DNA of 21,842 nt from a virus. Its lineage: Duplodnaviria > Heunggongvirae > Uroviricota > Caudoviricetes. The DNA lies in IMG/VR virus record IMGVR_UViG_2531839433_000003, one strand, 5' to 3'. Every line of letters starts with the position of its first letter. Within the stretch, counting starts at the first letter, position 1. The translations under genes were made by a program, and so were the position numbers. This document shows positions 1 through 19,222 of the stretch, piece by piece. The notes below the pieces were generated by a model. The model was not told the DNA's origin. It did no database searches and saw only the letters and a program-made list of their open reading frames with translations.

Positions 1-1053
1 TTACGGGGTAATGCCAACCGCTGCCGCCACTTTGTCGCCACTTGGCAATGTTGCCAGAGGATTGAAACGGAGCGCCGTTTCCAGATGATCCGGTGCCAGA
101 TGTGCGTAACGCATAGTCATTTTTATATCGTGGTGTCCGAGAATTTTTTGTAAGGCCAGGATGTTTCCACCCGACATCATGAAGTGCGCCGCAAACGTAT
201 GGCGCAGAACGTGTGTCAGTTGACCGCGAGGGAGCACGATAGACGTTTTTTCCATCACGGATAAAAATTGAAAATAGCAGTCTGTGAAGAAATTGAACCC
301 ATCAAGCGCCATGATCTCTTCGTAAAGCTCTTTACTGATAGGGATGCTTCTGTTTTTCTTCCCCTTCGTTCTTACAAAGGTAATTCGGTATTTGGTCACT
401 TGCGAGCGGGTAAGATTTATTGCTTCTCGCCAGCGTGCGTCTGTGCTTAGGCATATCTTGACTACCAGTGCCAGAATTGGGTCCTGACGTTTGCAATCAG
501 CCAGCAGTTCAACAATCTGCTCATGGGTAAGCCATGCCATTTCTTTTTCTGCGATGGTGAATTTTCGCATGTTCTCCAGTGGGTTCGGATACGACCATTC
601 GCCCAGGCGGGATAGTTCGCTAAAAACACTACTTAGATAGCTTTGCTCCAGGTTAATGGTGACCGGGCTTGCTCCTTTCTTCCATTTCTCGCTGAAGTAG
701 ATCTCTCCTGTCAGGCGTTTATCTCTATAGTGGGCAAACATTTTAGAGGTGAGATCGGTTGCAAGGGGATTGCCCAGAGCGTCAACCATCAACAGCAGTT
801 TGTCATAGACATGCTGCCCAGCTGTCAGAGATTTACCATGTAGTTTGAACCATAGCTCAACCACGTCTTTCAATGTCCGACGATCCACTGGTTCGCCCAG
901 CCAGGGCTTTGCTTCGGTTTCTTCCATCGTGTGACGCTCAAAAGCCAGAGCTTCGCCTTTAGTGGCGAATTGTTTACGCACACGACGCCCACTACGTCCG
1001 GCGGGGTAACATTCGCAAAGCCATTTCCCTGTGGTGAGTTTTCGTACTGCCAT
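1..1053 (-). CDS. int: Tyrosine integrase, P2/186 family; the last 13 codons are encoded by the att core plus host flank
   Basis: 350 aa ORF whose translation resembles P2 Int along its length, including the C-terminal catalytic region (LTHVLRHTFAAHF...GHHDIKMTMRYAHL). Sits at the prophage left end, transcribed toward the att repeat. Confidence 0.88.
   Translation of the reverse strand: MAVRKLTTGKWLCECYPAGRSGRRVRKQFATKGEALAFERHTMEETEAKPWLGEPVDRRTLKDVVELWFKLHGKSLTAGQHVYDKLLLMVDALGNPLATDLTSKMFAHYRDKRLTGEIYFSEKWKKGASPVTINLEQSYLSSVFSELSRLGEWSYPNPLENMRKFTIAEKEMAWLTHEQIVELLADCKRQDPILALVVKICLSTDARWREAINLTRSQVTKYRITFVRTKGKKNRSIPISKELYEEIMALDGFNFFTDCYFQFLSVMEKTSIVLPRGQLTHVLRHTFAAHFMMSGGNILALQKILGHHDIKMTMRYAHLAPDHLETALRFNPLATLPSGDKVAAAVGITP
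19..40. repeat. attL core: 22-bp direct repeat cgctgccgccactttgtcgcca, matching 18988..19009 with one mismatch
   Basis: Read directly: identical at 21 of 22 positions to 18988..19009. One copy lies inside the int 3' end, the other immediately after the ogr stop, which is where a P2-type att lies. Confidence 0.7.
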
Positions 1054-1058
1054 AAAGA

Positions 1059-1078
1059 AGCCCTCATATCAGAGGGCT
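1059..1078 (-). terminator. Stem-loop between the HEPN gene and int; possible attenuator or weak terminator
   Basis: 7-bp perfect inverted repeat agccctc / gagggct with a 6-nt loop. On the minus strand it is followed by a partly T-rich tract and overlaps the int ribosome-binding site. Confidence 0.3.
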
Positions 1079-1141
1079 AAATTTAACTGTGCTTATATAC
1101 AGTGGTCAATGTATGATTTCATTAAAACAGACAAGGGTGTG

Positions 1142-1777
1142 CTATAAATCTGCTCTTAAATTATTTTCAGGGTCATTAGCGATATTTCTTTGTGAATTAT
1201 TAACTAAATCAGAAAATGTATTATCTCGGTCGTTAGATTTAGTTAATCCAATATTCGTATTTGTCGCTTCTAATTCAAGTATTGATGACTCCATCTTCTG
1301 AATAATGGCTACACTATCTATAAAATAGTCGAAAATATATTGAAATGATACTGTGGGGCTTTTCCCATGAGCGAAATCATTTCTGGCTCTATTTAAAGAT
1401 TTCAACGAATCACGTAATTTATTTGAATGCGGATCGTTCTTGATTTTGTCCTTAAAGTTGTTACACCAGTTATTATCAAATGAACCAAGTGCCTTACAAA
1501 TATTATCGTAATTAGGGTTCATTGAACTATTTCTGAATTTTTCATCAATGAATCTTTGTATTTGTTCACTATGTTGATCATATTTATGATCGCTAATGAT
1601 TGTTTTGAAAGAATATTCAATGGTTCCGCAGGTTCTAATAATTGAATATCGTGTTAAATATTTAACAATAGTTGTAGTGGGGCCAGAAGATTCTATCATC
1701 TTCTCTATACTCTCAAGTTCCTTTAAACAATCTATAATGCTATTTTTAGCATTATTATTAACGATATTGAATGCCAT
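1142..1777 (-). CDS. HEPN-motif protein (R-x4-6-H), predicted RNase effector; resembles the MAE_28990/MAE_18760-type HEPN family
   Basis: Motif LNRARNDFAHGKS (RNxxxHG) in the C-terminal third of an AT-rich ORF. GGAG lies 7 nt upstream of the ATG at 1777; the ORF track's longer start at 1810 has no ribosome-binding site. Overlaps the DUF262 gene by 20 nt. Confidence 0.55.
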   Translation of the reverse strand: MAFNIVNNNAKNSIIDCLKELESIEKMIESSGPTTTIVKYLTRYSIIRTCGTIEYSFKTIISDHKYDQHSEQIQRFIDEKFRNSSMNPNYDNICKALGSFDNNWCNNFKDKIKNDPHSNKLRDSLKSLNRARNDFAHGKSPTVSFQYIFDYFIDSVAIIQKMESSILELEATNTNIGLTKSNDRDNTFSDLVNNSQRNIANDPENNLRADL

Positions 1778-2912
1778 AAAGAAACTCCAGTGCCATTGAA
1801 ATTCTTCCATGTATATTTTCTATCTGCATTGTACCAGATGTGATATGTGACCGAAATGTCTGATTTTGTAGTAACTCATTTCTTTTATGCTCTAGATCGT
1901 TAGTGTTTATATCTTCACCTGAATTTAATGCAATGGATGTTGCGACATATAATGCATCAAAAATGGTTGGATAAAAACGACGACGTATACGTGATGGATC
2001 TGATTGGATTATATTAAAGAATGCATCTGGTCCTATATTATCATGAATAAAATTAATGGTGTTTTCAAAATCGGTTTTAATGGTGTCGATCATGTCAGAG
2101 GTGTTATTTGCTTTATCACCCATATATTCATTAAGGAGTTTTTTTAGCGAAATATTTGCTGGTTCATGACTCTTTATTTTCTGCGTGTTAAGAGCCAAGC
2201 CTCTTAGAATGAATTCCATATCTCTCATTCGTGCATCTGGTTTATTAGAACCGAATAAAGTACGCCATTTGATATTATTGTTTAGTTCTATCAATAGAGT
2301 ATTTAATTTCCCTTGATATACGCAATTACGTATTTCTTGAGCCATTAGTGAACGTCCACCAGTATTTATACGCTCAAAAATTTGATATAGGCTAGTATCA
2401 TCGTTCGACGGAACGGTTTGCTCAAAGATTATAGCGTGTATAGTTGTTGAGCGAATTTTCTTTTTTTCTGAAACTGTAAGTTCATTAAAGGCCTTACCAC
2501 GCCATTTTGCATTAATTTTTCTACTATCGGAAAGTTTAAAGACTCTACTATCTTTTGACCATATACCTGTCACATAATCATAGACAGTCATGATTCTCTG
2601 AAAACCATCTATAATGAGTTTGTTTTCGTCAGACGTATTTGCTAAAAAAATACTCGGAACAGGAAGACCTAGCAATAATGAGTCTATAAATCTACTGGCT
2701 TCGACTTTATCCCAAACATAATTTCTTTGAAGTTCTGGTTTCTGAAGTTCGCCCTCATCATACATTGTAATAAGTTCTCTAAAAGATAAATCGGCCCCCC
2801 ATGAGTTTATATTGTATAAATCATCATTTGAGTAAGAATCGTTCTGTTCTTCTTCGATTATCTCTATTGTGTCCTCAAGAGAATTATTATTGATATAATT
2901 GCTGTCAGTCAT
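1758..2912 (-). CDS. DUF262 protein (ParB-like / GmrS N-terminal NTP-binding domain), no fused HNH/DUF1524 domain
   Basis: Motifs PELQRNYVW and IIDGFQR (the DGQQR-type motif) near the N-terminus. Start chosen at MTDSNY (ATG 2910..2912), which has GAGG 5 nt upstream and sits 1 nt after the CI-like stop codon. Confidence 0.72.
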   Translation of the reverse strand: MTDSNYINNNSLEDTIEIIEEEQNDSYSNDDLYNINSWGADLSFRELITMYDEGELQKPELQRNYVWDKVEASRFIDSLLLGLPVPSIFLANTSDENKLIIDGFQRIMTVYDYVTGIWSKDSRVFKLSDSRKINAKWRGKAFNELTVSEKKKIRSTTIHAIIFEQTVPSNDDTSLYQIFERINTGGRSLMAQEIRNCVYQGKLNTLLIELNNNIKWRTLFGSNKPDARMRDMEFILRGLALNTQKIKSHEPANISLKKLLNEYMGDKANNTSDMIDTIKTDFENTINFIHDNIGPDAFFNIIQSDPSRIRRRFYPTIFDALYVATSIALNSGEDINTNDLEHKRNELLQNQTFRSHITSGTMQIENIHGRISMALEFLYGIQYR

Positions 2913-2913
2913 T

Positions 2914-3864
2914 TTAACCTCTAACATTATTAATGGATAATACGATCTTTGCAATAAATTCGATTTCGTTTATTGAACATTCAAAAACTATGTTTTTATT
3001 TTTTACTTGAATTTTTTCATTAGGTAATTTAGTGATTGTTCGAATACTGATATCTCCATCAATACCAACGATCCACTCGCCATCTATAATATTATTGAAT
3101 CTTTTTTCACAAATGTAAAAGTTATTTACATTTTCAATCAAACAAGGAAATATCGTATTTTCAGGTAACAGATTTTTATCAAATATCGAGTTCCCGCTCT
3201 CAATTAATTTTGCATTATTTAGAGTAAACTTTGGTATATTTATACAGTTTAAACTGCTATTTTTTTCTATTTTATCTCCTTTCCCAAAGGCTAACCACGT
3301 GATGGATACTCCTGTTTCGATAGCACACTGAATTACCCAATCAGCAGGAAAAGTATCACGCATATATCGTGTGGCTAACGTGCTTTTTGAAATACCAAGG
3401 TGATCAGCTAAGGCTTGACGTGTCTTGTAACCGTAAGCTTCAACAATTCGTTCTATTACTGCTTTTCCTCCATGAGTGAAATTCATGTGGATTTCATTAT
3501 CGAACAGAGTGGGGGAAGAGTGAACTTTGTCGCAAAGTCCATCTTCGGTTTGTTTTTCAGCATGTTGTTCTAGTGAAGAAGATGACATTCTTTCTTTAAC
3601 ACCTGAACCAAATGCTAGCCATTCAATTGATGCGCCTGTCTCCATCGAGCAGATAACAACCCAATCTGCTGGAAATGTATCGCGGGCATATCTGTTAGCC
3701 ATCGTGCTTTGGGAAATACCTAGGTGATTACAGAATGCCTGGCGTGACTTGAAGCCATAAGCCATGAGGATCCGCTCAATTACTTTCTGACCACCGCGAT
3801 TCTGTATGACAGCGGCTTTCATATCGTCATTCATATGGCGAAATGTGAATTTTTGAGTTGACAT
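2914..3864 (-). CDS. CI-like repressor with two tandem Phage_CI_repr-type HTH domains and an AT-rich C-terminal domain
   Basis: Two internally repeated segments (around residues 14-88 and 120-195) share the pattern ERI..AYG.K.RQA...HLGIS.ST.A.RY.RDTFPADWV..C..ETG.S..WLAFG.G, which resembles the phage 186 CI N-terminal domain. Divergent from the Apl-like gene, in the cI position. Confidence 0.65.
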   Translation of the reverse strand: MSTQKFTFRHMNDDMKAAVIQNRGGQKVIERILMAYGFKSRQAFCNHLGISQSTMANRYARDTFPADWVVICSMETGASIEWLAFGSGVKERMSSSSLEQHAEKQTEDGLCDKVHSSPTLFDNEIHMNFTHGGKAVIERIVEAYGYKTRQALADHLGISKSTLATRYMRDTFPADWVIQCAIETGVSITWLAFGKGDKIEKNSSLNCINIPKFTLNNAKLIESGNSIFDKNLLPENTIFPCLIENVNNFYICEKRFNNIIDGEWIVGIDGDISIRTITKLPNEKIQVKNKNIVFECSINEIEFIAKIVLSINNVRG

Positions 3865-3886
3865 ATTCTTTATGCGAACCTATTCT
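3858..3886 (+). promoter_or_regulatory. Candidate rightward early promoter: TTGACA, 17-nt spacer, TATTCT
   Basis: Perfect -35 hexamer at 3858..3863 and a -10-like TATTCT at 3881..3886 upstream of the Apl-like gene; overlaps the CI-like start codon. No transcript data. Confidence 0.35.
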
Positions 3887-3888
3887 CC

Positions 3889-3918
3889 GTTTTGTGATGT
3901 TGTTATCACGATTAAAAC
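3889..3918. promoter_or_regulatory. Nested palindrome GTTTT-GTGAT-N6-ATCAC-gatt-AAAAC; candidate repressor/Apl operator
   Basis: Inverted repeats read directly in the cI/apl divergent intergenic region. Confidence 0.3.
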
Positions 3919-3952
3919 CAGCTCACCACAAGCTAAAAGGAGATGTTGCATC

Positions 3953-4174
3953 ATGACCCCTAACATTTCAATAACTCTGAATACACCACACGTCACAATC
4001 GAGCGTTATAGCGAACTTACTGGTCTTTCAATCGACACAATCAACGATATGCTGGCAGATGGTCGCATCCCTCGGCATCGTCTTCGTAAAGACAAAAAAA
4101 GAGAAAAGGTAATGATCAACCTTGCTGCTCTTACCGTTGATGCACTTACTGATTGCAATGTTGTATTCAACTAG
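3953..4174 (+). CDS. apl: Apl/Cox-like small HTH excisionase/regulator
   Basis: 73 aa, first rightward gene opposite the CI-like gene, GGAG upstream, HTH-like segment [24 protein letters not shown]. Position matches 186 apl / P2 cox. Confidence 0.55.
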
Positions 4175-4206
4175 TTCCATTTTGGGATATATCAGGGGTG
4201 TCGACT

Positions 4207-4716
4207 ATGTTTGATTACCAAGTTTCCAAACATCCACATTTTGATGAAGCCTGTCGTGCATTCGCGTTGCGCCACAACCTGGTGCAACTGGCAGAACGTG
4301 CAGGCATGAATGTGCAGATTCTGCGGAACAAGCTGAACCCAGCTCAACCTCATTTATTAACCGCACCAGACATCTGGCTGCTTACCGATCTGACTGAGGA
4401 TTCAACGCTGGTAGATGGTTTTCTGGCACAGATTCATTGTCTGCCATGTGTACCAATTAATGAGGTGGCAAAAGAGAAACTGCCACATTACGTCATGAGT
4501 GCAACCGCAGAGATCGGGCGTGTTGCGGCAGGTGCGGTATCTGGCGATGTAAAAACCAGTGCAGGTCGTCGTGATGCTATCAGCAGCATTAACTCTGTAA
4601 CACGACTGATGGCGCTGGCTGCTGTTTCATTGCAGGCCCGTTTACAGGCTAATCCTGCGATGGCGAGCGCAGTTGATACCGTGACTGGCCTCGGTGCTTC
4701 ATTCGGTTTGCTGTGA
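4207..4716 (+). CDS. cII: CII-like transcriptional activator (phage 186 CII type)
   Basis: 169 aa, the same length as 186 CII. N-terminus [20 protein letters not shown] and internal [28 protein letters not shown] match my recollection of 186 CII. Confidence 0.65.
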
Positions 4717-4723
4717 GGTGCTT

Positions 4724-4924
4724 ATGCTTACGAAAGAACCATCATTTGCATCGCTGCTGGTAAAGCAAAGCCCGGCAATGCACTACGGTCACGGCTGGAT
4801 CATGGGTGAGGATGGTAAACGCTGGCATCCATGCCGTTCACAAGATGAATTGCTGGCAGAACTATCTACGAAAAAACGGGGGAACAAATGGCTATTAATG
4901 GCGCTGCAGCAACTGTTCCATTAA
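4724..4924 (+). CDS. Hypothetical early-operon protein, 66 aa
   Basis: ORF with GAGGTG 5 nt upstream of the ATG, in the position of 186 fil. Confidence 0.4.
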   Translation: MLTKEPSFASLLVKQSPAMHYGHGWIMGEDGKRWHPCRSQDELLAELSTKKRGNKWLLMALQQLFH

Positions 4925-9022: not shown

Positions 9023-9116
9023 TTACGCGGGTTAACAATTCGTGCTCTTAATAATACCAGGTATATCAGGCTGATGAACGTAAAAAAACGTTTTACATCA
9101 GTAAGATTATTATATA

Positions 9117-9132
9117 CTGTAAATATAAACAG
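9117..9132. promoter_or_regulatory. LexA box, CTGT-N8-ACAG (ctgtaaatataaacag)
   Basis: Matches the SOS-box core; lies about 45 nt upstream of the 9175 ORF, inside an AT-rich promoter-like region. Confidence 0.5.
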
Positions 9133-9174
9133 TGATTATATATACAGTATTGTTTTGGTGTCATAGGAGGAAAG

Positions 9175-9363
9175 ATGCAGGACTATTTTTTGGAGTCTTT
9201 GAAGCTCCAGCGCATTGATTTTTTTCTTAAGCTTGTAGCGGCTAGTGAGTGTAGTGATGAAGAGAAGGGGCTGGCTCTGCAGTGGGTTTCTGAGTTGACT
9301 GATGAACTCATGGCAAAAATCAGAACTCACGAATACAACCGCTCAATGGACGTCATCAGTTGA
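9175..9363 (+). CDS. Small protein, 62 aa, first gene of a putative SOS-controlled Tum-like module
   Basis: Strong AGGAGG ribosome-binding site 7 nt upstream of the ATG, downstream of the LexA box. Confidence 0.5.
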   Translation: MQDYFLESLKLQRIDFFLKLVAASECSDEEKGLALQWVSELTDELMAKIRTHEYNRSMDVIS

Positions 9364-9373
9364 GGTGACTTTT

Positions 9374-9607
9374 ATGCGCATTGAAATAATGATCGATAAA
9401 GAGCAGAAGATTAGCCAGTCTACCCTGGACGCCCTTGAATCAGAGCTTTACCGCAATCTGCGCCCCCTGTATCCCAAAACGGTAATTCGCATCCGCAAAG
9501 GTAGCTCTAACGGTGTGGAACTGACCGGACTGCAACTGGACGAAGAAAGAAAACAAGTGATGAAAATTATGCAGAAGGTGTGGGAAGACGACAGCTGGCT
9601 GCATTAA
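9374..9607 (+). CDS. DinI-family protein (186 Tum-like C-terminal domain)
   Basis: 77 aa beginning MRIEIMIDKEQ and ending KVWEDDSWLH, which parallels E. coli DinI (MRIEVTIAK...ETWESADDWF). GAGGTGA ribosome-binding site. Confidence 0.65.
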   Translation: MRIEIMIDKEQKISQSTLDALESELYRNLRPLYPKTVIRIRKGSSNGVELTGLQLDEERKQVMKIMQKVWEDDSWLH

Positions 9608-9766
9608 GAAAAGTTGCTGGCGTCTGAACTTGGTTCTGGCGTCAGCAAGGTTGAACAACGAGTACAGTGAGGCGTTAGGTGTGGCGTTTATTTGATGAGT
9701 GAACGCCCGTTCTGCGACAGGTTCGGAGATTAAGGTTGAAACTACGGGCAAAATACCATCTTTTTC

Positions 9767-10192
9767 CTACTTAATTGAGTCCAGTAACAAGTTACAGTTA
9801 CTCTCATTGTAGAGAGAACGAGCAATTAGTGTTACCTGCTTTCCATTTATTCCCGGCTTATCCCATAACACAGCTTCTTGCGACGCCACAAATTCAGCAT
9901 AATCAATTATGCGTTGTTCGTGATCTGGTTCCTCATAGCCAAAGTATGAGAGCGCATCGTTGTAAGCGTGGTAAGCTGCTTTCTGTAATATCTTGATATC
10001 GGCTGTAGGTACTTGCCCCGTGTAGCTAGGATCTAATTGTGTGCTACTGCCATAGAATGCACATGAAAGGTAAGATATTGATTTCTGTTGAGCTTTAGTT
10101 CCTTTCTCATAGTTTTTAGCTGTTACCGCCTGAACTGGGACGCTAACAAAGCTTGCAACCAGAATTAAAATTAATACGTAAAAGCTTTTCAT
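9767..10192 (-). CDS. Secreted/periplasmic protein of unknown function, 141 aa, Sec-type signal peptide
   Basis: N-terminus MKSFYVLILILVASFVSVPVQA followed by a polar mature region; GAGG 5 nt upstream. AT-rich, leftward, at the position and orientation P2 uses for old. Confidence 0.6.
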   Translation of the reverse strand: MKSFYVLILILVASFVSVPVQAVTAKNYEKGTKAQQKSISYLSCAFYGSSTQLDPSYTGQVPTADIKILQKAAYHAYNDALSYFGYEEPDHEQRIIDYAEFVASQEAVLWDKPGINGKQVTLIARSLYNESNCNLLLDSIK

Positions 10193-10465
10193 TTTGACCT
10201 CAGCCGAAACGTTAGAGAGACTATCGAAATTTGTAAAACCCGTGGCGATTCAGTTTGAGATCCTCCCCCTTACATGATTTTTAATCAAATATATGCTTTT
10301 GTAAGCATACCTGTTAACCGAATTATTTATTTTTAGAGATTTTCCGACATACTGATTATACCCGCTGAGGAGTTCACCTTGCGTAAAGTCCGATTCGCTT
10401 TACTCGTCTGTGCATGTCTATGCTGCATGAGATTGCATGATCGTTTGAGGATCGTTTTTGCTAAG

Positions 10466-10489
10466 GCCCGCCAGAACTGGCGGGCTTTT
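10466..10489 (+). terminator. Rho-independent terminator on the plus strand
   Basis: GC-rich hairpin gcccgcc(agaact)ggcgggc followed by TTTT. Confidence 0.5.
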
Positions 10490-10534
10490 GCGTAGATCAT
10501 GCACCTGCATGAAAACCACTACATAAAGCGGGCA

Positions 10535-10553
10535 GGCGTGGCGGGGATACGAG
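10535..10553. other. Probable cos site (P2/186-type cohesive-end sequence)
   Basis: ggcgtggcgggga matches the first 13 nt of the P2/186 cohesive end as I recall it (GGCG[A/T]GGCGGGGAAAGCA). It is embedded in a GC-rich structured island between the replication side and the portal side, where cos lies in P2. Confidence 0.45.
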
Positions 10554-10780
10554 CGCGCGCCGCGGGTTGAAATAGTAAAATTCACTTAGCCTCAGGCCCG
10601 CTGATGGTTTTCTTCTGAAAGGGAGGGCGCGTTTTTGTGCAATCTTGTTTGAAGGGATTTAAATAAATGTTGAATGTGTTCCGGAGTTGGCTGTAGATTT
10701 AGTGTTCTGTCACAAGTTGCAGTGATAGGTAGCAAACCTTTAAAAGGTTCTGCTATTGTTTCATTAAAGATTTATAGTCT

Positions 10781-11380
10781 TTGTCCGAAAATGACATTAA
10801 AGTAGTCGCCTTTAATGTCGTAAGCATGAAGGACAGAGAATTGAACTTAGAGCAGATTGCCAGTCAAAGTATAAGTAACCTTCAGTTTCTCCTCGATACT
10901 TTGAAGATGCCGTTGGCTGTTGGTCCAATCAGTGATGAAGACTATGTGATCCTGACCACAGGATATGCTCAGCTAGAATGGGATTATGGTTTTTCTCGGT
11001 TTGGCAATCGAAGTGATAAGTTTGAATTTTGTTTGAAGCTCCTTGCGGGGCCACTTAGGCATATCCCTTCTGGCGCAGCTATGTGCACCTTTGACGAGGA
11101 CGCTGGAGTCATAGAGATCCATTTTGTGGAATCTTTTGTGAAAGATGATGACGTAGAGCACCCTCTTTACGGCAACATGTTCATGGTTACATTGTGGGCG
11201 GTATATCTTTTTGGTAGCGCGGTTGGGTGTCAAGAGATTCGGATCCCTGAAGCCCTGAATCAAAAAGTTGCTGACCACTATAAAAAATTTGGTTTTAAAG
11301 GTGATATAAGCTTGCTTTCGGCACCTTTTGCTACAATAACTGATGTAGTAAGACGCTACATTACTTCTAAGAAACAGTAG
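10781..11380 (+). CDS. Hypothetical protein, 199 aa from the TTG at 10781 (184 aa if the ATG at 10826 is used)
   Basis: Long ORF in the AT-rich region between cos and the portal gene; start codon uncertain and no clear ribosome-binding site. No family recognised. Confidence 0.45.
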   Translation: MSENDIKVVAFNVVSMKDRELNLEQIASQSISNLQFLLDTLKMPLAVGPISDEDYVILTTGYAQLEWDYGFSRFGNRSDKFEFCLKLLAGPLRHIPSGAAMCTFDEDAGVIEIHFVESFVKDDDVEHPLYGNMFMVTLWAVYLFGSAVGCQEIRIPEALNQKVADHYKKFGFKGDISLLSAPFATITDVVRRYITSKKQ

Positions 11381-11459
11381 ATAAATTTTTGCGCAGTGCT
11401 ACAATGCTGCGCCAAACATCCACCACCGGATGATGAGGCTTGACCTCTAAGAGGAAATC

Positions 11460-11639
11460 ATGACTATGACGCATAGTGACAAGAAAGCTCAGAAGCATTA
11501 CTCAGTATCTGATGTTTTCAGCCGTATGGGCGTCGCGATGGAAGAACTACTTCAAGCGGCCCCACATATGATGCAGGACTGCAAATTTGAAGGAAATGAG
11601 CTGCATGGTAAGCTCAAAGAAAAGCAGAAAGCTGCTTAA
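11460..11639 (+). CDS. Small hypothetical protein, 59 aa
   Basis: GAGG 5 nt upstream of the ATG; followed within 25 nt by a strong intrinsic terminator. Below the ORF-track length cut-off; translated by hand. Confidence 0.5.
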   Translation: MTMTHSDKKAQKHYSVSDVFSRMGVAMEELLQAAPHMMQDCKFEGNELHGKLKEKQKAA

Positions 11640-11661
11640 TTCCATGAAATGCGTTTTGCAT

Positions 11662-11688
11662 GAAGCCCGGTAATACCGGGCTTTTTTA
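11662..11688 (+). terminator. Rho-independent terminator
   Basis: Hairpin agcccgg(taata)ccgggct followed by TTTTTT; sits between the convergent small gene and the portal 3' fragment. Confidence 0.7.
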
Positions 11689-11694
11689 TGCTTG

Positions 11695-11815
11695 CTAGTC
11701 AGTATTAAGCTCATATGGATTGAATCGGACTACCTCTTCACCAAGCCATTCATTTAGCTCCAGCAATCGCTTTTGTAACGGTACTATTTCGTTTCTTGTG
11801 AAGACGCGACTGGCC
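11695..11815 (-). pseudogene. Portal gene (P2 gpQ type) 3' fragment, separated from the rest by the IS66-family insertion
   Basis: Minus-strand frame read by hand through the IS junction encodes ...RLLELNEWLGEEVVRFNPYELNTD then a stop at 11695..11697. Confidence 0.5.
11808..11815. repeat. Target-site duplication gactggcc, left copy
   Basis: Identical 8-mer directly abuts both IS ends (11808..11815 and 14515..14522). Confidence 0.8.
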
Positions 11816-11845
11816 GTAAGCGGCTCGTCAGAACCGTATTGATAT

Positions 11846-13417
11846 TTACTGAGAGCTCAGATCAACTTTCCAGGGCAACAGATCGCGTACCCGGTTTGCC
11901 GGCCAGTCCTGGATATGTTCAATGACGTAGCGCAGCCACTTTTCTGGCTCCACATTGTTCAGACGGCATGTGCCGATCAGCGAGTACAACACCGCCGCAT
12001 GTTCACCACCGCTGTCGGAACCCGCGAACATCCACTTTTTCCGGCCTACGGCCACTCCCCGTAAGGCGTTCTCTGCGATGTTGTTGTCGATTTCCACCCA
12101 GCCATTACTGCAGTACACGTTCAGTGCATCCCACTGTTTCAGCAGGTATGCGAACGCTTTTGCCGTATCTGAGTGACGCGACAGTGTTTTCATCTGTTGC
12201 TGTATCCAGTCATACAGTGACTGCATCAGTGGCGCGGCTCTGGTTTTTCTTGCCGCCAGACGCTGTTCTGCTGAACAGCCCCGGACCTCTGCCTCGATGG
12301 CATACAGTTCACCGATACGCTGCAGGGCTTCCGTGGTGATGTCGGTGGGCGCTCTTGCATGCACATCGTGGATTTTTCTCCGGGCATGAGCCATACACGC
12401 GGCTTCCGTTATTCTGCCGGATTCGTATAACGCCCGGTAACCACCGTAAGCATCGGCCTGAAGCACACCGCTGTAACCGGCCAGGTGATTTTGTGGATGG
12501 ATACCTTTCCGGTCCGGACTGTACGCGAACCAGACCGCCGGGGGCATCTGTGAACCGGCGTTACGGTCATCACGGACGTAGACCCACAGCCGGGCTGTCC
12601 GGGTTTTACCGCTGCCCGGCTCCTGGACCGGGACGGGGATATCATCAGCATGGACTTTACCGGGCATCAGCACATACTGGCGCAGGACGTCATACAGCGG
12701 CTCCAGTAGTTCAGCAACGGCACCTGTCCAGCGCCCCAGTGTGGCACGGCTCAGCTCCACACCCTGACGGCGGTATATCTCTGACTGGCGGTATAACGGC
12801 AGATGGTCTGCATATTTTCCGGTGACGACATGGGCCAGGAGCCCCGCTCCGGCATAACTGCGTGCAATGGGTTTTGAAGGTACTGGTGCCTGCACGATAT
12901 GGTCGCACCGACAACAGGCCAGTTTCGGACGTTGTGTTTCGATAACCTTAAAGGCGCTGCTGATAAGCTCCAGTTGCTCTGACACATCACATCCCAGAGA
13001 ACTGAGTTCACCACCACAGGCAGGACAGCATTCCTCTTCCGGCCGGATAACCCGGGTTTCACGGGGAAGTGAGGCCGGTAACGGTTTACGGGCTGAAGAC
13101 TGGCGCAGGGCGGATGGCAGTACCGGGTCATATTGCTCACCCAGCGTTTCCGCCATTTCTTCCTGAAGTGCGCTGATTCGCTCCTGTGCTTCCTGTATCT
13201 GCCGTTCGGTTTTTGCACGAAGTTTTTCTGAGCTTTTACCGAACTGCATACGTTGCAGTTTCGCAACCAGCGCCTTCAGCCGGTTGATTTCGGAAGCATA
13301 AGCCGCCACCCGCTGTGAGAGCAGGCGGTTGTATTCAGCCATCTGGCGTATGGTGTCCTGTTGCGTCTGCAACAGTGCCCGCAGGCGGGCGTTCTCATGA
13401 GCAAGTGAGGTGTCCAT
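11846..13417 (-). CDS. tnpC: IS66-family transposase (TnpC)
   Basis: 523 aa with an N-terminal coiled-coil/leucine-zipper region and a Cys-rich segment, as in IS66-family TnpC. Confidence 0.85.
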
Positions 13418-13436
13418 ATCCTCACTTTACAACGGG

Positions 13437-13784
13437 TTATATGCGGATTCCAGCGCGTTCCGTTCGTTTCGGGTGCTTCCAGTTGATACCTTCAAGAAGC
13501 ATGGATAACTGAGCCGGAGTAAGGTGCACCTTGCCGTCACGGGTGACTGGCCAGACGAAGCGGCCCCGCTCCAGGCGTTTGGTGAAGAGGCACAGTCCGT
13601 CACTGTCAGCCCACAACACTTTTATCTGGTCACCCCGGCGTCCGCGGAAGATGAACAGGTGTCCGGAGAACGGGTCATCCTTCAGGACGTTCTGAACTTT
13701 TGATGCCAGGCCGTTAAAGCCATTTCGCATATCGGTGATACCTGCAACCAGCCAGATACGCGAACCTGCAGGGAGAGATATCAT
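13437..13784 (-). CDS. tnpB: IS66-family accessory protein TnpB (Orf2)
   Basis: 115 aa, MISLPAGSRIWLVAGITDMR..., as in IS66 Orf2; ATGA overlap with the upstream ORF. Confidence 0.8.
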   Translation of the reverse strand: MISLPAGSRIWLVAGITDMRNGFNGLASKVQNVLKDDPFSGHLFIFRGRRGDQIKVLWADSDGLCLFTKRLERGRFVWPVTRDGKVHLTPAQLSMLLEGINWKHPKRTERAGIRI

Positions 13785-14461
13785 CAGTGGCTGCTCCCTT
13801 TTATTTCGCGGATAAGTGTCTGTAATAACGCCGGCGTCAGTTTACCTTTAAGCCTGAGAGTTCCGGCCGGCAGAACCAGCTCACAACACAGACTGTCGGA
13901 CGGTGTATTTATCTGCTCTGGTTCCTGTGCGGGGGCCGGGATTTTATTATCCGGCTCCGGCGTTAACGTCACGGGAAGCAGTGCCGGCATATTTTTTCCG
14001 GAAGGCAGCAGGCCACCTTTCCGGTATTGATGGCGCCAGTTGAAGAGCAGGTTATCGTTGATTCCGTTTTCCCGGGCGATCTGCGCCACACAGGCTCCGG
14101 GCTGCAGTGACTGCTCCACTAAGGCGATTTTAAACTCATAAGGGAAGTTGGGCCGCCGGGGACGTTTTTTTACCACGGGGGCTTCGGATATAACGGTGCT
14201 TTCAGGACGTACGACTGGTACCGTGGAAAATTGTCCGTAAAGGCAGGCATCAAGTTCCTGCTCCGACATGCCTGCGGGCAAAGGCCACGAAAGGCCAGCT
14301 CTCCGAAAGCGCACGAACATACTACAAACTGTTGATTTTGGTACACCCAGGCGACGCCCGGCCACAACCCGGGGTAAATGTTCTTCAAAGTGAAGACGTA
14401 AAGCTTCAGTGATCCAGGTCCGGTGTTTCATACGATAGTGTCCATTAAAAATGATGGACAT
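13784..14461 (-). CDS. tnpA: IS66-family accessory protein TnpA (Orf1); start uncertain
   Basis: First ORF inside the IS, leftward, coupled to tnpB. The true start may be the internal Met (MKHRTW...). Confidence 0.6.
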   Translation of the reverse strand: MSIIFNGHYRMKHRTWITEALRLHFEEHLPRVVAGRRLGVPKSTVCSMFVRFRRAGLSWPLPAGMSEQELDACLYGQFSTVPVVRPESTVISEAPVVKKRPRRPNFPYEFKIALVEQSLQPGACVAQIARENGINDNLLFNWRHQYRKGGLLPSGKNMPALLPVTLTPEPDNKIPAPAQEPEQINTPSDSLCCELVLPAGTLRLKGKLTPALLQTLIREIKGSSH

Positions 14462-14514
14462 TATTTTTGTAGAGCCGGAGGAAACAGACCAGACGGTTTA
14501 AATGAGCCGGTTAC

Positions 14515-14522
14515 GACTGGCC
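14515..14522. repeat. Target-site duplication gactggcc, right copy
   Basis: Identical to 11808..11815. Confidence 0.8.
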
Positions 14523-15439
14523 TTTTCCACATCCCCAAAACCGCCGGTATTGTTGGGAATGATACCCATCATTTGCGGCGGCACACGATGCGCCGCCATC
14601 ATGTCGTCCCGGCTCACGTTCTTGATATTCAGGAACTCATCCTTCGCCGCCACTTCTGACAACGGGATAATCTGAAGCCCATCCTTTTTGCCGTTAGGCG
14701 AGTACATAAACAGGTTACGGAAGTTACCAGGACCTTTGGCACTTTTCATTGCGTTGCGGAGGTTGTTCACATCCTCCTGGTTCTGCGCGGCGTCGGTCAT
14801 GTACATGATGAAGCCCGCATGGCTGCCGTTGATGTAATACTTCCGGCGGAACAGCGTGGCGGACTCGTTGAGCAGGGCTGACGGAATGGCAGAAAGATAA
14901 CCGGGCAGGCCGTAGATCTCCTGGTTGATGTCCGGCTCCATCAGATGAAAAATGCTGCCTTTCGTGAACTGATACGGCTGGGTTGTCATACCGTATTGCA
15001 CAAACCAGTAGGTATCCAGGTCTAACCCGCGTCGGGTGTATTTTGCCAGAGCAGGCTCAAGGGCTATAACTTCACCGAAGCGGTTCGTGCGTTTCTCCAG
15101 GTAGGCGTTACCAAAAACCAGATAGTCCTGTACAAAACGCGAAAAAGCCTGCTGGCTGAGCAGCGGGTGAGGGATGTAGGTGCTGGTCAGAATGTTGCAC
15201 TTTACTGCAATCGGGGAACTATGATGAACGGCAGCGCGGAAGGTGCGCGCCAGTCCGTCAAAGCTGACGGGCGGCTCATACCAGCGGTCCATCTGTACGC
15301 ATTCCACATAATCCAGCAGCTCTCGGCGGTCCAGAACAGGAACGGGATCGCCGAAGCTGAATGCTTCGGCTGTAGTTTGACTTTTAAGCTGGATCTGTTT
15401 CGTCGCCGCAGCGCGGTTCTTCTTACTCTTTCCCATCAA
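14515..15439 (-). pseudogene. Portal gene (P2 gpQ type) 5' portion, interrupted near its 3' end by the IS
   Basis: ORF 14498..15439 translates to a P2 Q-like portal; its last few codons read into IS sequence. Start overlaps the terminase stop (ATGA). Confidence 0.75.
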
Positions 15440-17202
15440 AAAATCTCCACAATATTGCTGGTATTGGCGGATTCGCCCTGCAGCGGTTCGTTAAACAGTG
15501 CGTGCATCGTTGCCCAGGCCAGATCGGCGTGGCTGGCTTCTTCGCTGCGGCTGGCTTCATAGGTCGGGCGGTTGCCACTGGCGGTGGTGGCGCGACGGAT
15601 TGCCATAAAGGACTGCGCTATGTCGGTGTGTCCGGCGTCAAACTCCAGACGGCGGTGGCTGATAATGTCGTAGGCCTTGAGTACCAGGGCGTTTTTAACG
15701 TTGGGGTTGTAGACAAACTCCCGGACGGCAGGAAAAAACGCTTTCACGTTCTCGTAAACCCCGTGACCAACGCCGGTTGAGTCGATACCGATATAGGTCA
15801 CGTTGTACTGTTCGGTCAGTTTTTTGATGGCGTCCGCCTGGGCGCGGAAGTCCATTCCGCGCCACTGGTGACGCTCAAGAATGCGGAACTTACCGCCCGG
15901 CACGGCTGGCGGCGCCACCACCACGCATCCGGCGCTGTCGCCGTTCTGCGTACCTTTCGCCGGATCATATCCGATCCACACTTCGCGCCAGCCAAACGGG
16001 CGCAGGGCCAGTGCATGAAAGTCGGTCCAGACTTCCCAACTGTCCACCATGCACGCCTGCAGCTCGCTGAGTGGGAACACAGACGCGAGATCGTCCACGA
16101 ACTCACACATCAGCAGGTTCTGGTATTCGTCCGGGCTGTACTCCATGCGCAACTGATCGAGGTCGAACAGGTTACAGCCGCCGCGCACCGCATCTTCCAC
16201 AGTGACTATCTGGCGGTACTGCCCGTCTGCGCACAGCAGGCCGGGGGCCAGATTGCTGTGGGACAGGTCGATGTCCACCTTATCGGCTTTGTTGCGCCCT
16301 CGGTTGAATAGCGCACCGGACCAGAACGGATAAGCACTGTGTGTCAGGCTGGATGGCGTGGAAAAATAGGTTTGTCGCCATTTTTTGTGAATAGCCATAC
16401 CGGAAGCCACTTTGCGCAGCTCCTGGAATTTCGGTATCCAGAAATATTCATCCAGATACAGGTTGCCGTGGTAACTCTGGGCCGTGCGGGCATTGGTGCC
16501 GAGGAAGTACAGCGTGGCCCCGTTAGGAAGCACCATCGGATCGCCTTTCAGCTCCACCTCCACTTCTTTGGCGAAGTCGATGATGTACTGCTTAAAGACG
16601 TGGGCCTGAGCCTTGCTGGCGGAAAGGAAAATCTGGTTACGCCCGGTTAGCAGGGCGTCAATCAGGGCTTCACGGGCAAAATAGAAGGTCGCGCCGATCT
16701 GGCGTGACTTCAGCAGGTTGCGGATGCGGTTGGTTTTTCCGGCTTCCCACCAGTGGCGCTGGTAGTTGAACATGGAGGAATGGAAGATTTCTTCCAGCTT
16801 CTCAATCTGTTCATCGGTGAAAACGTTCTTTTCCGGCTGACGGCGCGGGCCTTTGTTGCGGTTGGCGACGTTAGGGTTTAAGTCGGCTTCGTTGCCGCCA
16901 TTGTTAAACTTGCCGATCCGCGCATGGCGCTCCGACTGGCGCGCCAGCAGGTCAATCTCTTTGAAATCTTTCCCTTCTTTGTGCTCCTTCATAATGAGCT
17001 GGCAGTAGCGTGCGGCGGTGGTGAGCTGCATCTGATCCAGCGGCCCATAGTCACCCCACTTGTCGCGTTTTTTCCAGCTGTGAACGGTTGCAACTTTCTC
17101 GCCCAGCATTTCAGCAATGCGGGCTACGCGGTATCCCTGAAAGTACAGCAGCATGGCCTGCCGACGGGGATCGAGATCTGCGGGTGTCAGTGTGGTGTTC
17201 AT
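15436..17202 (-). CDS. Terminase large (ATPase) subunit, P2 gpP type
   Basis: 588 aa, close to the 590 aa of P2 gpP; resembles it along its length; coupled to the portal gene. Confidence 0.85.
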   Translation of the reverse strand: MNTTLTPADLDPRRQAMLLYFQGYRVARIAEMLGEKVATVHSWKKRDKWGDYGPLDQMQLTTAARYCQLIMKEHKEGKDFKEIDLLARQSERHARIGKFNNGGNEADLNPNVANRNKGPRRQPEKNVFTDEQIEKLEEIFHSSMFNYQRHWWEAGKTNRIRNLLKSRQIGATFYFAREALIDALLTGRNQIFLSASKAQAHVFKQYIIDFAKEVEVELKGDPMVLPNGATLYFLGTNARTAQSYHGNLYLDEYFWIPKFQELRKVASGMAIHKKWRQTYFSTPSSLTHSAYPFWSGALFNRGRNKADKVDIDLSHSNLAPGLLCADGQYRQIVTVEDAVRGGCNLFDLDQLRMEYSPDEYQNLLMCEFVDDLASVFPLSELQACMVDSWEVWTDFHALALRPFGWREVWIGYDPAKGTQNGDSAGCVVVAPPAVPGGKFRILERHQWRGMDFRAQADAIKKLTEQYNVTYIGIDSTGVGHGVYENVKAFFPAVREFVYNPNVKNALVLKAYDIISHRRLEFDAGHTDIAQSFMAIRRATTASGNRPTYEASRSEEASHADLAWATMHALFNEPLQGESANTSNIVEIF

Positions 17203-17248
17203 GGCACAAACCTACAGCCTTGAATGAAGGCTTTCCCCGCCTGCGGTT

Positions 17249-17266
17249 TGTGTGGTTGTCGGTACA
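17249..17266. promoter_or_regulatory. TGT-N12-ACA dyad, candidate Ogr-type late-activator site
   Basis: tgtgtggttgtcggtaca lies in the divergent terminase/scaffold intergenic region, about 55 nt upstream of a plausible transcription start for the scaffold gene. Confidence 0.4.
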
Positions 17267-17344
17267 AATACCGCGCATTGTTTCACTGCCCCCATCACCG
17301 CAACCATAAGGCTCCAGTAAGTTTTTTCTAACGGAGCACGGCTC

Positions 17345-18178
17345 ATGACAGTGAAAGCAAAGCGTTTTCGCATCGGGGTGGAAGGTGCCACCACCGACGG
17401 ACGCGAAATCCAGCGTGAATGGCTGGAACAGATGGCAGCCAGCTACAACCCGGCGGTGTATACCGCGCTGATTAACCTTGAGCACATCAAGTCTTATCTG
17501 CCGGACAGCACCTTTAACCGCTACGGCAAGGTGACGGCGCTGTTTGCTGAAGAAATCACGGAAGGTCCGCTGGCAGGCAAGATGGCGCTGTATGCCGACG
17601 TTGAGCCAACGGAGTCCCTGGTGGAACTGGTGAAAAAAGGCCAGAAATTATTCACCTCTATGGAAGTCAGCCCGAAGTTCGCTGATACGGGCAAAGCCTA
17701 TCTGGTCGGCCTGGCTGCCACTGATGACCCTGCCAGTCTGGGTACGGAAATGCTGACATTCAGCGCCAGTGCAGCCCATAACCCGCTGGCAAACCGCAAG
17801 CAGAATCCTGCCAATCTCTTTACCGCTGCAGAGGAAACGGTGATCGAACTGGAAGAAATCCAGGACGACAAACCGTCCCTGTTTGCCCGCGTCACGGCGC
17901 TGTTTACCAAAAAAGAGCAATCCGATGACGCCCGGTTCTCTGATGTGCATAAGGCCGTGGAGCTGGTCGCCACTGAGCAGCAGAACCTGAGCGCACGCAC
18001 CGAAAAATCCCTGTCTGAGCAGGAAGAACGCCTGTCTGAGCTGGAGACTGCCCTGCAGGCACAGCAAACCGCCTTTAACGAACTGGTGGACAAGCTGAGT
18101 CATGAAGACAGTCGCCAGGACTACCGCCAGCGTGCAACAGGCGGTAACGCCCCCGCTGACACTCTGACCAATTGCTGA
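17345..18178 (+). CDS. Capsid scaffolding protein, P2 gpO type
   Basis: 277 aa (P2 gpO is 284 aa), divergent from the terminase gene, with an acidic coiled-coil C-terminal half. Confidence 0.8.
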   Translation: MTVKAKRFRIGVEGATTDGREIQREWLEQMAASYNPAVYTALINLEHIKSYLPDSTFNRYGKVTALFAEEITEGPLAGKMALYADVEPTESLVELVKKGQKLFTSMEVSPKFADTGKAYLVGLAATDDPASLGTEMLTFSASAAHNPLANRKQNPANLFTAAEETVIELEEIQDDKPSLFARVTALFTKKEQSDDARFSDVHKAVELVATEQQNLSARTEKSLSEQEERLSELETALQAQQTAFNELVDKLSHEDSRQDYRQRATGGNAPADTLTNC

Positions 18179-18194
18179 TGGAGCACAAAACCCG

Positions 18195-18572
18195 ATGAAG
18201 AAGAATACCCGCTTTGCTTTTAACGCTTACCTGCAGCAGCTGGCGCGTCTGAACGGTGTGGCAGTTGAAGAACTGTCCAGCAAGTTCACCGTGGAGCCGT
18301 CTGTGCAGCAGACGCTGGAAGACCAGATCCAGCAGTCCGCCGCTTTCCTGACGCTGATTAACGTCACGCCAGTGACTGAGCAGTCCGGTCAGCTGCTGGG
18401 GCTGGGAGTTGGCAGCACCATTGCCGGAACCACTGACACCACCGCGAAAGAGCGTGAACCTGTCGATCCGACGCTGATGGTCGATGTGGAATATAAATGC
18501 GAGCAGACCAACTTTGACACGGTGCTGACCTACGCGAAGCTGGACCTGTGGACGGGGTGGGCTCTTAGATGA
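18195..18572 (+). pseudogene. Major capsid protein (P2 gpN type), N-terminal about 125 aa only
   Basis: Begins MKKNTRFAFNAYLQQLARLNG...KFTVEPSVQQTL like P2 gpN, but terminates after 125 aa where about 357 are expected. Confidence 0.7.
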
Positions 18573-18573
18573 T

Positions 18574-18678
18574 GCGGAATGGACCATTACGACTCTGACG
18601 CATACCGTCAGCCCCGATAACGGTTTTACAACCAGTCTGGAGCTTGAAGTGAGGATTGATGATTTCGAAATGGAATGA
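18574..18678 (+). pseudogene. Possible C-terminal remnant of tail gene D fused out of frame to the capsid fragment
   Basis: The +1 frame reads ...TITTLTHTVSPDNGFTTSLELEVRIDDFEME then stop, about 90 nt upstream of ogr, where D lies in P2. Assignment is by position and frame only. Confidence 0.3.
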
Positions 18679-19009: not shown

Positions 19010-19074
19010 TCGTTAAAAAACAGTGTTTCTAACATCATGATTTTAAACAGCTTAAATTTCAGGCAACAAAAAAC

Positions 19075-19111
19075 CCATCAACCTTGAACCGAAATGGCGG
19101 GGTTGATGGGC
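19075..19111 (-). terminator. Probable ybjL rho-independent terminator
   Basis: 10-bp stem cccatcaacc / ggttgatggg; on the minus strand it is followed by six T. Confidence 0.45.
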
Positions 19112-19222
19112 TCCACAAAATGGGGACATCAAAGAAAAGCAGTGGCACTAATTAAGACTGATGCCCTGCGGAAAAGTTCTGCGGTTGTGCAAAAAAATTT
19201 CATTTTCAGGGCAACTTCAGTT

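Follow-up and report, generated by a model that had tools for sequence, protein, structure and literature searches.

A DUF262–HEPN gene pair in the variable cI–int slot of a 186-like Escherichia coli prophage, a probable PD-T4-2-type anti-phage system

Introduction

PD-T4-2, a two-gene system made up of a DUF262 protein and a HEPN protein (PF18735), protects Escherichia coli ECOR65 against phage T4 in its native context (PMC9519451; PMC10952713). In P2-like phages, defence systems are found at two classic hotspots, A-Q ('old/tin') and Z/fun (PMC9122126, PMC9519451). A hotspot between cI and int has been described in K139-like Vibrio phages by Rousset et al. 2022 (PMC9122126), and in a Nucleic Acids Research (NAR) 2026 survey, 8% of the defence systems of P2 mapped to the interval from integrase to primase (PMC13586616). 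In this study, we analysed a DUF262–HEPN gene pair that lies between the repressor gene cI and the integrase gene int of a 186-like prophage, in a stretch of 21,842 nucleotides (nt) recorded as IMG/VR virus IMGVR_UViG_2531839433_000003 (Duplodnaviria; Heunggongvirae; Uroviricota; Caudoviricetes); the whole of this stretch is called the window. We consider it likely that cassettes are exchanged at a hotspot between cI and int, that the pair is the cassette now residing there and that it is, at the same time, a two-gene anti-phage system of the PD-T4-2 type.

The closest described arrangement of the flanking genes is the lysogenic operon of coliphage 186, which is read from pL and pE through cI into int. 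The window has the same gene order and strand, the same CI family (PF07022 plus PF16452), and apl, cII and fil on the opposite strand. In 186, however, cI overlaps int by 1 nt, whereas in the window the two genes lie 1.86 kb apart with cargo between them, int has a promoter-like leader of its own and the helix-turn-helix (HTH) domain of CI is duplicated. In P2, a gene-free interval of 115 bp lies between the repressor gene C and int. The premise of an earlier note on this DNA, that neither P2 nor 186 has genes at this place, is therefore correct.

Results

The window carries a P2/186-like (Peduoviridae) E. coli prophage that adjoins the host gene rcdA. Positions 1–4800 are 100% identical to E. 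coli strains 504239, 67-1 and WS1933D and essentially the same as in the enterotoxigenic strain TW11681, and gene coordinates were taken from the open reading frame (ORF) listing together with the RefSeq annotation of the identical 504239 locus (Table 1). The genes int, HEPN, DUF262 and cI are all on the minus strand, and are followed on the plus strand by an apl/cox-like gene, cII, fil and the early operon. The DUF262 gene is the upstream member of the pair: its ATG is 1 nt past the cI stop codon, with a Shine–Dalgarno (SD) sequence, AGAGG, within the last cI codons, and its end overlaps the start of the HEPN gene by 20 nt.

Positions 1–4800 were compared by blastn with seven relatives, namely five E. 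coli rcdA-site prophages, Escherichia phage vB_EcoM-813R9 and Klebsiella phage 4LV2017. The left arm (1–1114), and with it the DNA of int, the conserved left flank of the slot, is 94–96% identical to these relatives, which hold other cargo. The right arm (3278–4800) is 90–92% identical in five of the seven; in the locus L008 it begins at 3314 (88% identity), and in vB_EcoM-813R9, whose cI has a single HTH, high identity (94%) resumes only at 3852. Nothing aligns between the arms, and the differing block is thus 1115–3277, which comprises the C-terminal domain (CTD) of CI and the two cargo genes. In the species survey described below, the left breakpoint always fell at 1114–1135, and the right one at 3278 in double-HTH relatives or at about 3852–3905 where the whole of cI differs. 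Position 3278 corresponds to about residue 195 of CI, in the linker that joins the second HTH to the CTD, and because this breakpoint falls within cI, the exchanged block takes in the CTD. The alternative cargoes, among them an Old nuclease, a PD-Lambda-1 protein and a DUF4747 pair (Table 1), start 1–43 nt past cI on the same strand in every variant examined. No transposon-type direct or inverted repeats were found to bound the cargo, just short AT-rich chance matches. The earlier note had suggested a variable accessory slot, and this is what the alignment reveals: near-identical flanks surround unrelated cargo in the seven relatives, which do not uniformly carry the same two genes.

To place the slot more widely, an alignment of integrases provided 80 loci, with one genome per species. 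In the window clade (Int at least 69% identical to that of the window), cI was recognisable in 25 loci, and every one of these carries 395–2964 bp of cargo from the cI stop to the int start, with an interval GC content of 0.30–0.41. In the 186-type clade (Int 52–57% identical), by contrast, cI abuts or overlaps int in about 39 of 47 loci, and eight hold 115–5342 bp. Across the survey loci, the slot cargo comprises more than 25 protein clusters and at least 12 cargo types. PADLOC recognised Old, PD-Lambda-1, PDC-M11A/B, PDC-S20 (PifA-like), PDC-M18A/B and HEC-01A/B (two HEC-01 variants) among the alternative cargo, and an AriA/Old-like ATPase-Toprim protein is also present. Several occupants had neither a Pfam nor a convincing PADLOC match (Table 1); because their neighbours in the same slot are defence systems, these unrecognised occupants are candidate new defence genes. 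With its conserved flanks and unrelated content, rich in known and candidate defence systems, the slot is a hotspot.

This slot shares with the P2-like hotspots its conserved flanks, short AT-rich interval, defence-rich variable content and exchange without transposon hallmarks. It is, however, neither A-Q nor Z/fun, it is filled in every sampled member of the window clade while being mostly absent in the 186-type clade, and one of its recombination arms lies inside the repressor gene, so that the CTD is exchanged with the cargo. That the slot is filled in all sampled members of one Int clade, that a breakpoint lies in cI and that the int leader is conserved was not found to be stated in PMC9122126, PMC9519451 or PMC13586616.

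As in PD-T4-2, the pair consists of a DUF262 gene without DUF1524 followed on the same strand by a PF18735 HEPN gene, with A upstream of B, and, like many systems of the Vassallo et al. 2022 screen, it sits in an E. coli mobile element. The window proteins are longer (384 and 211 amino acids [aa], where the profiles span 363 and 168). How near the pair stands to the ECOR65 prototype (RCO39066.1 and its unannotated partner) was approached through PADLOC profile scores: the DUF262 protein matched NsnA (1.4e-65, 220 bits; 21–380 of 385) and PD-T4-2_A (2.1e-55, 186 bits; 14–360 of 363), and the HEPN protein matched PD-T4-2_B (1.6e-8, 33 bits). By architecture, the pair is a predicted PD-T4-2-like system. 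Menshen (NsnABC) shares the NsnA-like DUF262 protein, the best PADLOC match and nearly full length, but the window has no adjacent NsnB ATPase or NsnC effector, the neighbours being cI, HEPN and int. GmrSD, BrxU and SspE share the N-terminal ParB-like DUF262 domain with its DGxQR nucleotide-binding motif; the DUF1524 His-Me nuclease is theirs only, Pfam giving no match to this domain in either protein of the pair. Because the putative effector of the pair is instead a separate HEPN RNase, an RNA rather than a DNA target would be expected. A GmrSD-type type IV restriction enzyme was rejected as an identification since DUF1524 is missing; RefSeq names the protein 'GmrSD restriction endonuclease domain-containing protein' on account of its N-domain alone.

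The DUF262 family is large (2788 matches at E ≤1e-10), with 63–83% identity over Proteobacteria, Bacteroidota and others. The motif D102-G-x-Q105-R106 is invariant in the family alignment, and the protein has an alpha-helical C-terminal domain. A sequence search of PDB with the DUF262 protein returned only the N-terminus of BrxU (7p9k, 4.4e-5), and the same kind of search for solved homologues of the HEPN family gave nothing meaningful. In the HEPN protein, the motif R132-N-x-F-A-H137 (Rx4H) is invariant, with R132 and H137 kept in 31 homologues. Its C-terminal 40 residues or so (about 170–211; window 1142–1270) form a low-confidence tail, with a predicted local distance difference test (pLDDT) score of about 50. 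Such tails in phage-borne HEPN proteins are 15–60 residues long, variable, of low complexity and acidic or Ala-rich, and most of the homologues of about 168 aa elsewhere have no tail.

Among solved structures, the HEPN model comes closest in fold to the HepT toxins of HEPN-MNT toxin–antitoxin systems, and the pair could accordingly be read as a toxin–antitoxin or addiction module in which HEPN is the toxin and DUF262 its neutraliser, stabilising the prophage rather than acting against other phages. The tight bicistron layout would suit such a module, as would the intact state of the pair in the decayed prophage of six genomes. We regard this as quite unlikely, given that HEPN is partnered by an NTPase-like DUF262 protein of 384 aa and not by an MNT nucleotidyltransferase, that the same architecture defends natively against T4 (PMC9519451) and that the other slot tenants are defence systems, not classical toxin–antitoxin pairs; the two roles are, moreover, not mutually exclusive. 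Membership of the HEPN-MNT systems proper was rejected: the HEPN fold is present, but the partner is DUF262, with no nucleotidyltransferase domain by Pfam.

The base composition of the pair sets it apart from its surroundings. The GC content of 1054–2913 is 0.324, with 0.299 in the HEPN gene and 0.335 in the DUF262 gene (GC at third codon positions [GC3] 0.255 and 0.260), vs 0.489 in int (GC3 0.51) and 0.504 in the window outside the block; downstream of the block, every other 2163-bp stretch has a GC content of at least 0.427. A tract between int and the repressor gene unlike its flanks, as the earlier note had described, is thus clearly borne out by GC and GC3, but its extent has to be revised: positions 1054–2913 are AT-rich, yet the tract runs on past the cI stop, the most AT-rich part being the last third of cI (2914–3277, 364 bases, GC 0.253), and the block that differs among relatives is 1115–3277.

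The order of DUF262 then HEPN, with an overlap of 17–20 nt, was seen in all 10 contexts fetched, and members of the two families are found together on contigs. Over 10 E. coli genomes, both proteins are 99.7–100% conserved, and no DNA-level relatives of the pair were found in E. coli genomes beyond these 10 identical copies. The order cI-DUF262-HEPN-int recurs in a second, diverged E. coli rcdA-site prophage lineage (DUF262 83% identical), and the pair fills this slot also in prophages of Yersinia enterocolitica, Serratia marcescens, Brenneria izadpanahii and Rahnella aceris (DUF262 71–77%), adjoining a 186-type Int (51% identity) in Brenneria. Recent horizontal transfer from a donor of low GC, with AT-richness marking the arrival, would account for a GC of 0.31 vs 0.50 and a GC3 of 0.26 vs 0.51, and might draw on the occurrence of the pair as a free-standing unit in Pectobacterium and beside a Y1 transposase in Aeromonas. 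We hold this explanation to be very unlikely. The pair is found in the same slot of diverged 186-like prophages from five genera (DUF262 71–83%, HEPN 48–70% aa identity), its DNA identity to the window (70–74%) is similar to the value for int and early genes (66–75%), its GC is 0.32–0.36 in every context, including loci at 0.52–0.60, and every other slot cargo is equally AT-rich. Because the pair is AT-rich in every host, AT-richness does not date its arrival. Judging from these sequence comparisons, the pair is best described as an old, recurrent tenant rather than a one-off recent insertion. The earlier note had seen the signature of horizontally acquired cargo here; the AT-richness is intrinsic to the pair and does not speak for a recent arrival.

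The CTD of phage 186 CI mediates oligomerisation. In the window, CI has two HTH domains, at about residues 25–86 and 133–194, which are roughly 68% identical to each other (72% in DNA). The CI of 186 and of most relatives has a single HTH, and such repressors align only to the second HTH and the CTD; the double-HTH form is common to the E. coli rcdA-site prophages, Klebsiella phage 4LV2017 and one other species locus (L034). Beside different cargo, CI is about 90% identical across the two HTH domains and only 35–43% identical across the CTD. Among 30 loci, CTD identity between any two with different cargo stays below 70% (68.6% at most, with a median of 34.7%), and this divergence persists even where Int is 100% and the HTH region 94% identical. 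Because the DUF262–HEPN pair occurs with CTDs that are only 31–63% identical, CTD and cargo also vary independently of each other. A fixed 'CTD plus pair' module was rejected: only in the E. coli sibling lineage does the CTD match as well (60%), and the Yersinia, Serratia, Brenneria and Rahnella CTDs are at 32–40%, no higher than beside other cargo. That the block is a divergent immunity region, in which the CTD was replaced for immunity or oligomerisation specificity and the two genes are passengers without selected function, is highly improbable, since, for all that the breakpoint inside cI, the AT-richness of the CTD and its divergence between cargoes would fit, the two cargo genes are undamaged, have catalytic motifs that do not vary and are 99.7–100% conserved in 10 genomes, one cargo type adjoins very different CTDs, and the cargo families are recognised defence genes.

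On the other side of the slot, the int leader contains an inverted repeat, a promoter-like element and a hairpin (Table 1). Where the surrounding DNA stops aligning, the left arm of this repeat nevertheless persists, with matching changes, and the leader may be an int-specific promoter and operator. Elsewhere in the window, the full motif of the repeat was not found, and its half-sites occur at chance level (7 vs 6.2 expected); no tie of the repeat to the cI/apl operator region was established. Plus-strand ORFs in the block (1089–1301, 1596–1799 and others) are short and have no annotation or homology support, and were set aside. An Rfam scan found no non-coding RNA in the slot; the only match was host RybB, outside the prophage.

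The prophage in the window is defective, its head, tail and lysis genes being gone. The insertion sequence ISCro1 (IS66 family; tnpA, tnpB and transposase, 11846–14461) splits the portal gene in a damaged region that spans 11695–18678, and a deletion fuses the major capsid gene, truncated at 18551, to a remnant of the late-control gene gpD (18565–18678). Exactly the same remnant is present in six complete genomes. An apparently intact sibling prophage in E. coli KMi012 (L104, 20001–44800) encodes identical DUF262 and HEPN proteins, and its A-Q hotspot holds different cargo, a DUF3696 protein and a 341-aa hypothetical protein. In the window, the classic P2 hotspot between the replication endonuclease gene and the portal gene (9023–11694) is also AT-rich (GC 0.38–0.46) and contains a DinI-like gene and four small ORFs (9175–9363, plus strand; 9767–10192, minus strand; 10826–11380 and 11460–11639, both plus strand), for which no Pfam or PADLOC match was found.

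At the right end of the prophage, directly past ogr, is the host small RNA gene rybB (19065–19143, minus strand; Rfam RF00110, 105 bits), and host ybjL begins at 19223. The prophage is thus inserted between rcdA and rybB, which suggests that the att site is at or beside rybB. In six loci (L007, L021, L028–L030 and L077), matches to window positions 1–44, the int 3′ end and att region, are displaced from int by extra DNA, an example being the 270-bp ORF at L007 347–616. A minor 'integrase-to-att' hotspot is mentioned in PMC13586616, and the displaced 44-base ends fit such a hotspot.

Table 1. Features of the cI–int slot and its surroundings in the window, other occupants of the slot, and numbers of genomes with a given cargo among 5426 complete E. 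coli genomes. Positions preceded by an L number are those of the locus so labelled.
Feature	Position	Strand	Evidence or remark	E. coli genomes
int, tyrosine integrase (Int_N + Phage_integrase)	1–1053	-	Pfam PF24624 3e-32, PF00589 2.8e-20; RefSeq	
int leader	1054–1135	-	MAFFT alignment of 17 junctions; kept in every cargo variant	
Hairpin in int leader	1078–1059	-	sequesters SD-like GAGGG, 7 nt before int ATG	
Promoter-like element in int leader	-35-like TTGACC 1109–1104; -10-like TTAAAT 1086–1081	-	spacing 17	
Inverted repeat in int leader	TGTcTG 1133–1128; CATACA 1115–1110	-	general form TGTATG-N12-14-CATACA; one mismatch in window	
HEPN protein, RiboL-PSP family, 211 aa	1142–1777	-	Pfam PF18735 HEPN_RiboL-PSP 2.6e-19	10 (as pair)
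DUF262/GmrSD_N (ParB/Srx-like) protein, 384 aa	1758–2912	-	Pfam PF03235 2.7e-26, sole Pfam match	10 (as pair)
cI repressor, 316 aa	2914–3864	-	Pfam two PF07022 HTH + PF16452	
CI C-terminal domain (Phage_CI_C)	2914–3277	-	PF16452 1e-23	
CI N-terminal part, two tandem Phage_CI_repr HTH	3278–3864	-	PF07022 8.5e-59, two stretches	
pR-like promoter match TTGACA-17-TATTCT	3858–3886	+	consensus match only; directed away from cI, position of 186 pR	
Relative cargo: Old nuclease, 589 aa			PADLOC 9e-235	14
Relative cargo: DUF4041/T5orf172 protein (PD-Lambda-1), 558 aa			PADLOC 4e-120	164
Relative cargo: DUF4747-named protein, 349 aa, + 201-aa protein	L005 1443–3099		no Pfam, no convincing PADLOC match	11
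Relative cargo: 324-aa protein	L004 1435–2409		no Pfam, no convincing PADLOC match	7
Slot occupant, 309 aa	L024 5981–6910		no Pfam or convincing PADLOC match	
Slot occupant, 395 aa	L077 5739–6926		no Pfam or convincing PADLOC match	
Slot occupant, 432 aa	L023 5615–6913		no Pfam or convincing PADLOC match	
Slot occupant, 493 aa	L032 5448–6929		no Pfam or convincing PADLOC match	

Discussion

The results are best accounted for, with good probability, by a PD-T4-2-type defence pair that currently occupies an exchangeable slot behind cI. In this account, the pair would be transcribed with cI from the lysogenic promoter, as the 186 operon and the gene layout suggest, and hence would be made in the lysogen. 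The common strand, the 1-nt gap and the outcome of a promoter and terminator scan, in which no terminator-like site was found between cI and the pair, are consistent with co-transcription. DUF262 domains of GmrSD, BrxU and SspE bind and hydrolyse nucleoside triphosphates (NTPs) and gate an effector, and HEPN domains with an Rx4H motif are RNases; for this reason we infer that the DUF262 protein would sense an infection cue and the HEPN protein would cut RNA. The DUF262 protein, presumed to be an NTP-dependent sensor or regulator, would use its ParB-like NTPase as a sensor or switch in the manner of GmrSD, BrxU and SspE, and its cue may be phage DNA or a replication intermediate. It would then license the HEPN protein, the presumed RNase effector, to cut RNA, and infection by a superinfecting phage would be aborted.

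Replacement of the cargo would take place by homologous recombination of related phages, in which one arm would be int with its leader and the other the HTH region of cI or the early operon. With the arms so placed, the divergent CTD of CI would travel with the cargo.

Several points weigh against this account of the pair. The defence role and the expression in the lysogen are predicted from genes and layout, and a consensus scan did not locate the lysogenic promoter for cI and the cargo. Promoter-like matches inside the AT-rich block are not enriched (13 found vs 15.6 expected in shuffles), and since they are no commoner than in shuffles, they speak neither for nor against an internal promoter. 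Because no mechanism has been published for PD-T4-2, the roles of sensor and effector rest on analogy, and by score the window pair is distant from PD-T4-2, with NsnA at 220 bits above PD-T4-2_A at 186 and PD-T4-2_B at 33. The AlphaFold2 (AF2) model of the DUF262 protein is weak (pLDDT below 50 over residues 1–120 and 155–199) and gave no match at E ≤0.001 when compared with PDB by Foldseek; because of both, the model was discarded. Finally, because the prophage in the window is defective, the pair there may now serve the host rather than the phage.

It is conceivable, although we think it unlikely, that exchange at this hotspot always has a breakpoint in the repressor linker or beyond, so that each change of cargo would bring a different CI oligomerisation domain, that this coupling is functional and that the clade tolerates cargo by virtue of a promoter and operator of int's own in the leader. 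If the coupling of CTD and cargo is real, distinct CTDs might prevent mixed oligomers of the repressors of co-resident sibling prophages, or the CTDs might set the strength of expression of the downstream cargo. If the leader is int's own promoter and operator, int would be uncoupled from the cI transcript.

In summary, the slot described here is a well-delimited addition to the catalogue of prophage defence hotspots; the hotspot type has already been published, and current views are not overturned. In a whole integrase clade of 186-like phages, with members across Enterobacterales, a cargo bay is retained immediately after the repressor gene, and because of this position, expression of the cargo should be guaranteed in every lysogen. 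The exact junctions place the CTD of CI within the exchanged DNA, which is relevant to the way in which cargo is replaced at hotspots. The DUF4747 pair and the single genes for proteins of 324, 309, 395, 432 and 493 aa are cheap candidates for new defence systems. The DUF262–HEPN subfamily itself is very widespread and highly conserved, with 63–83% identity across phyla.

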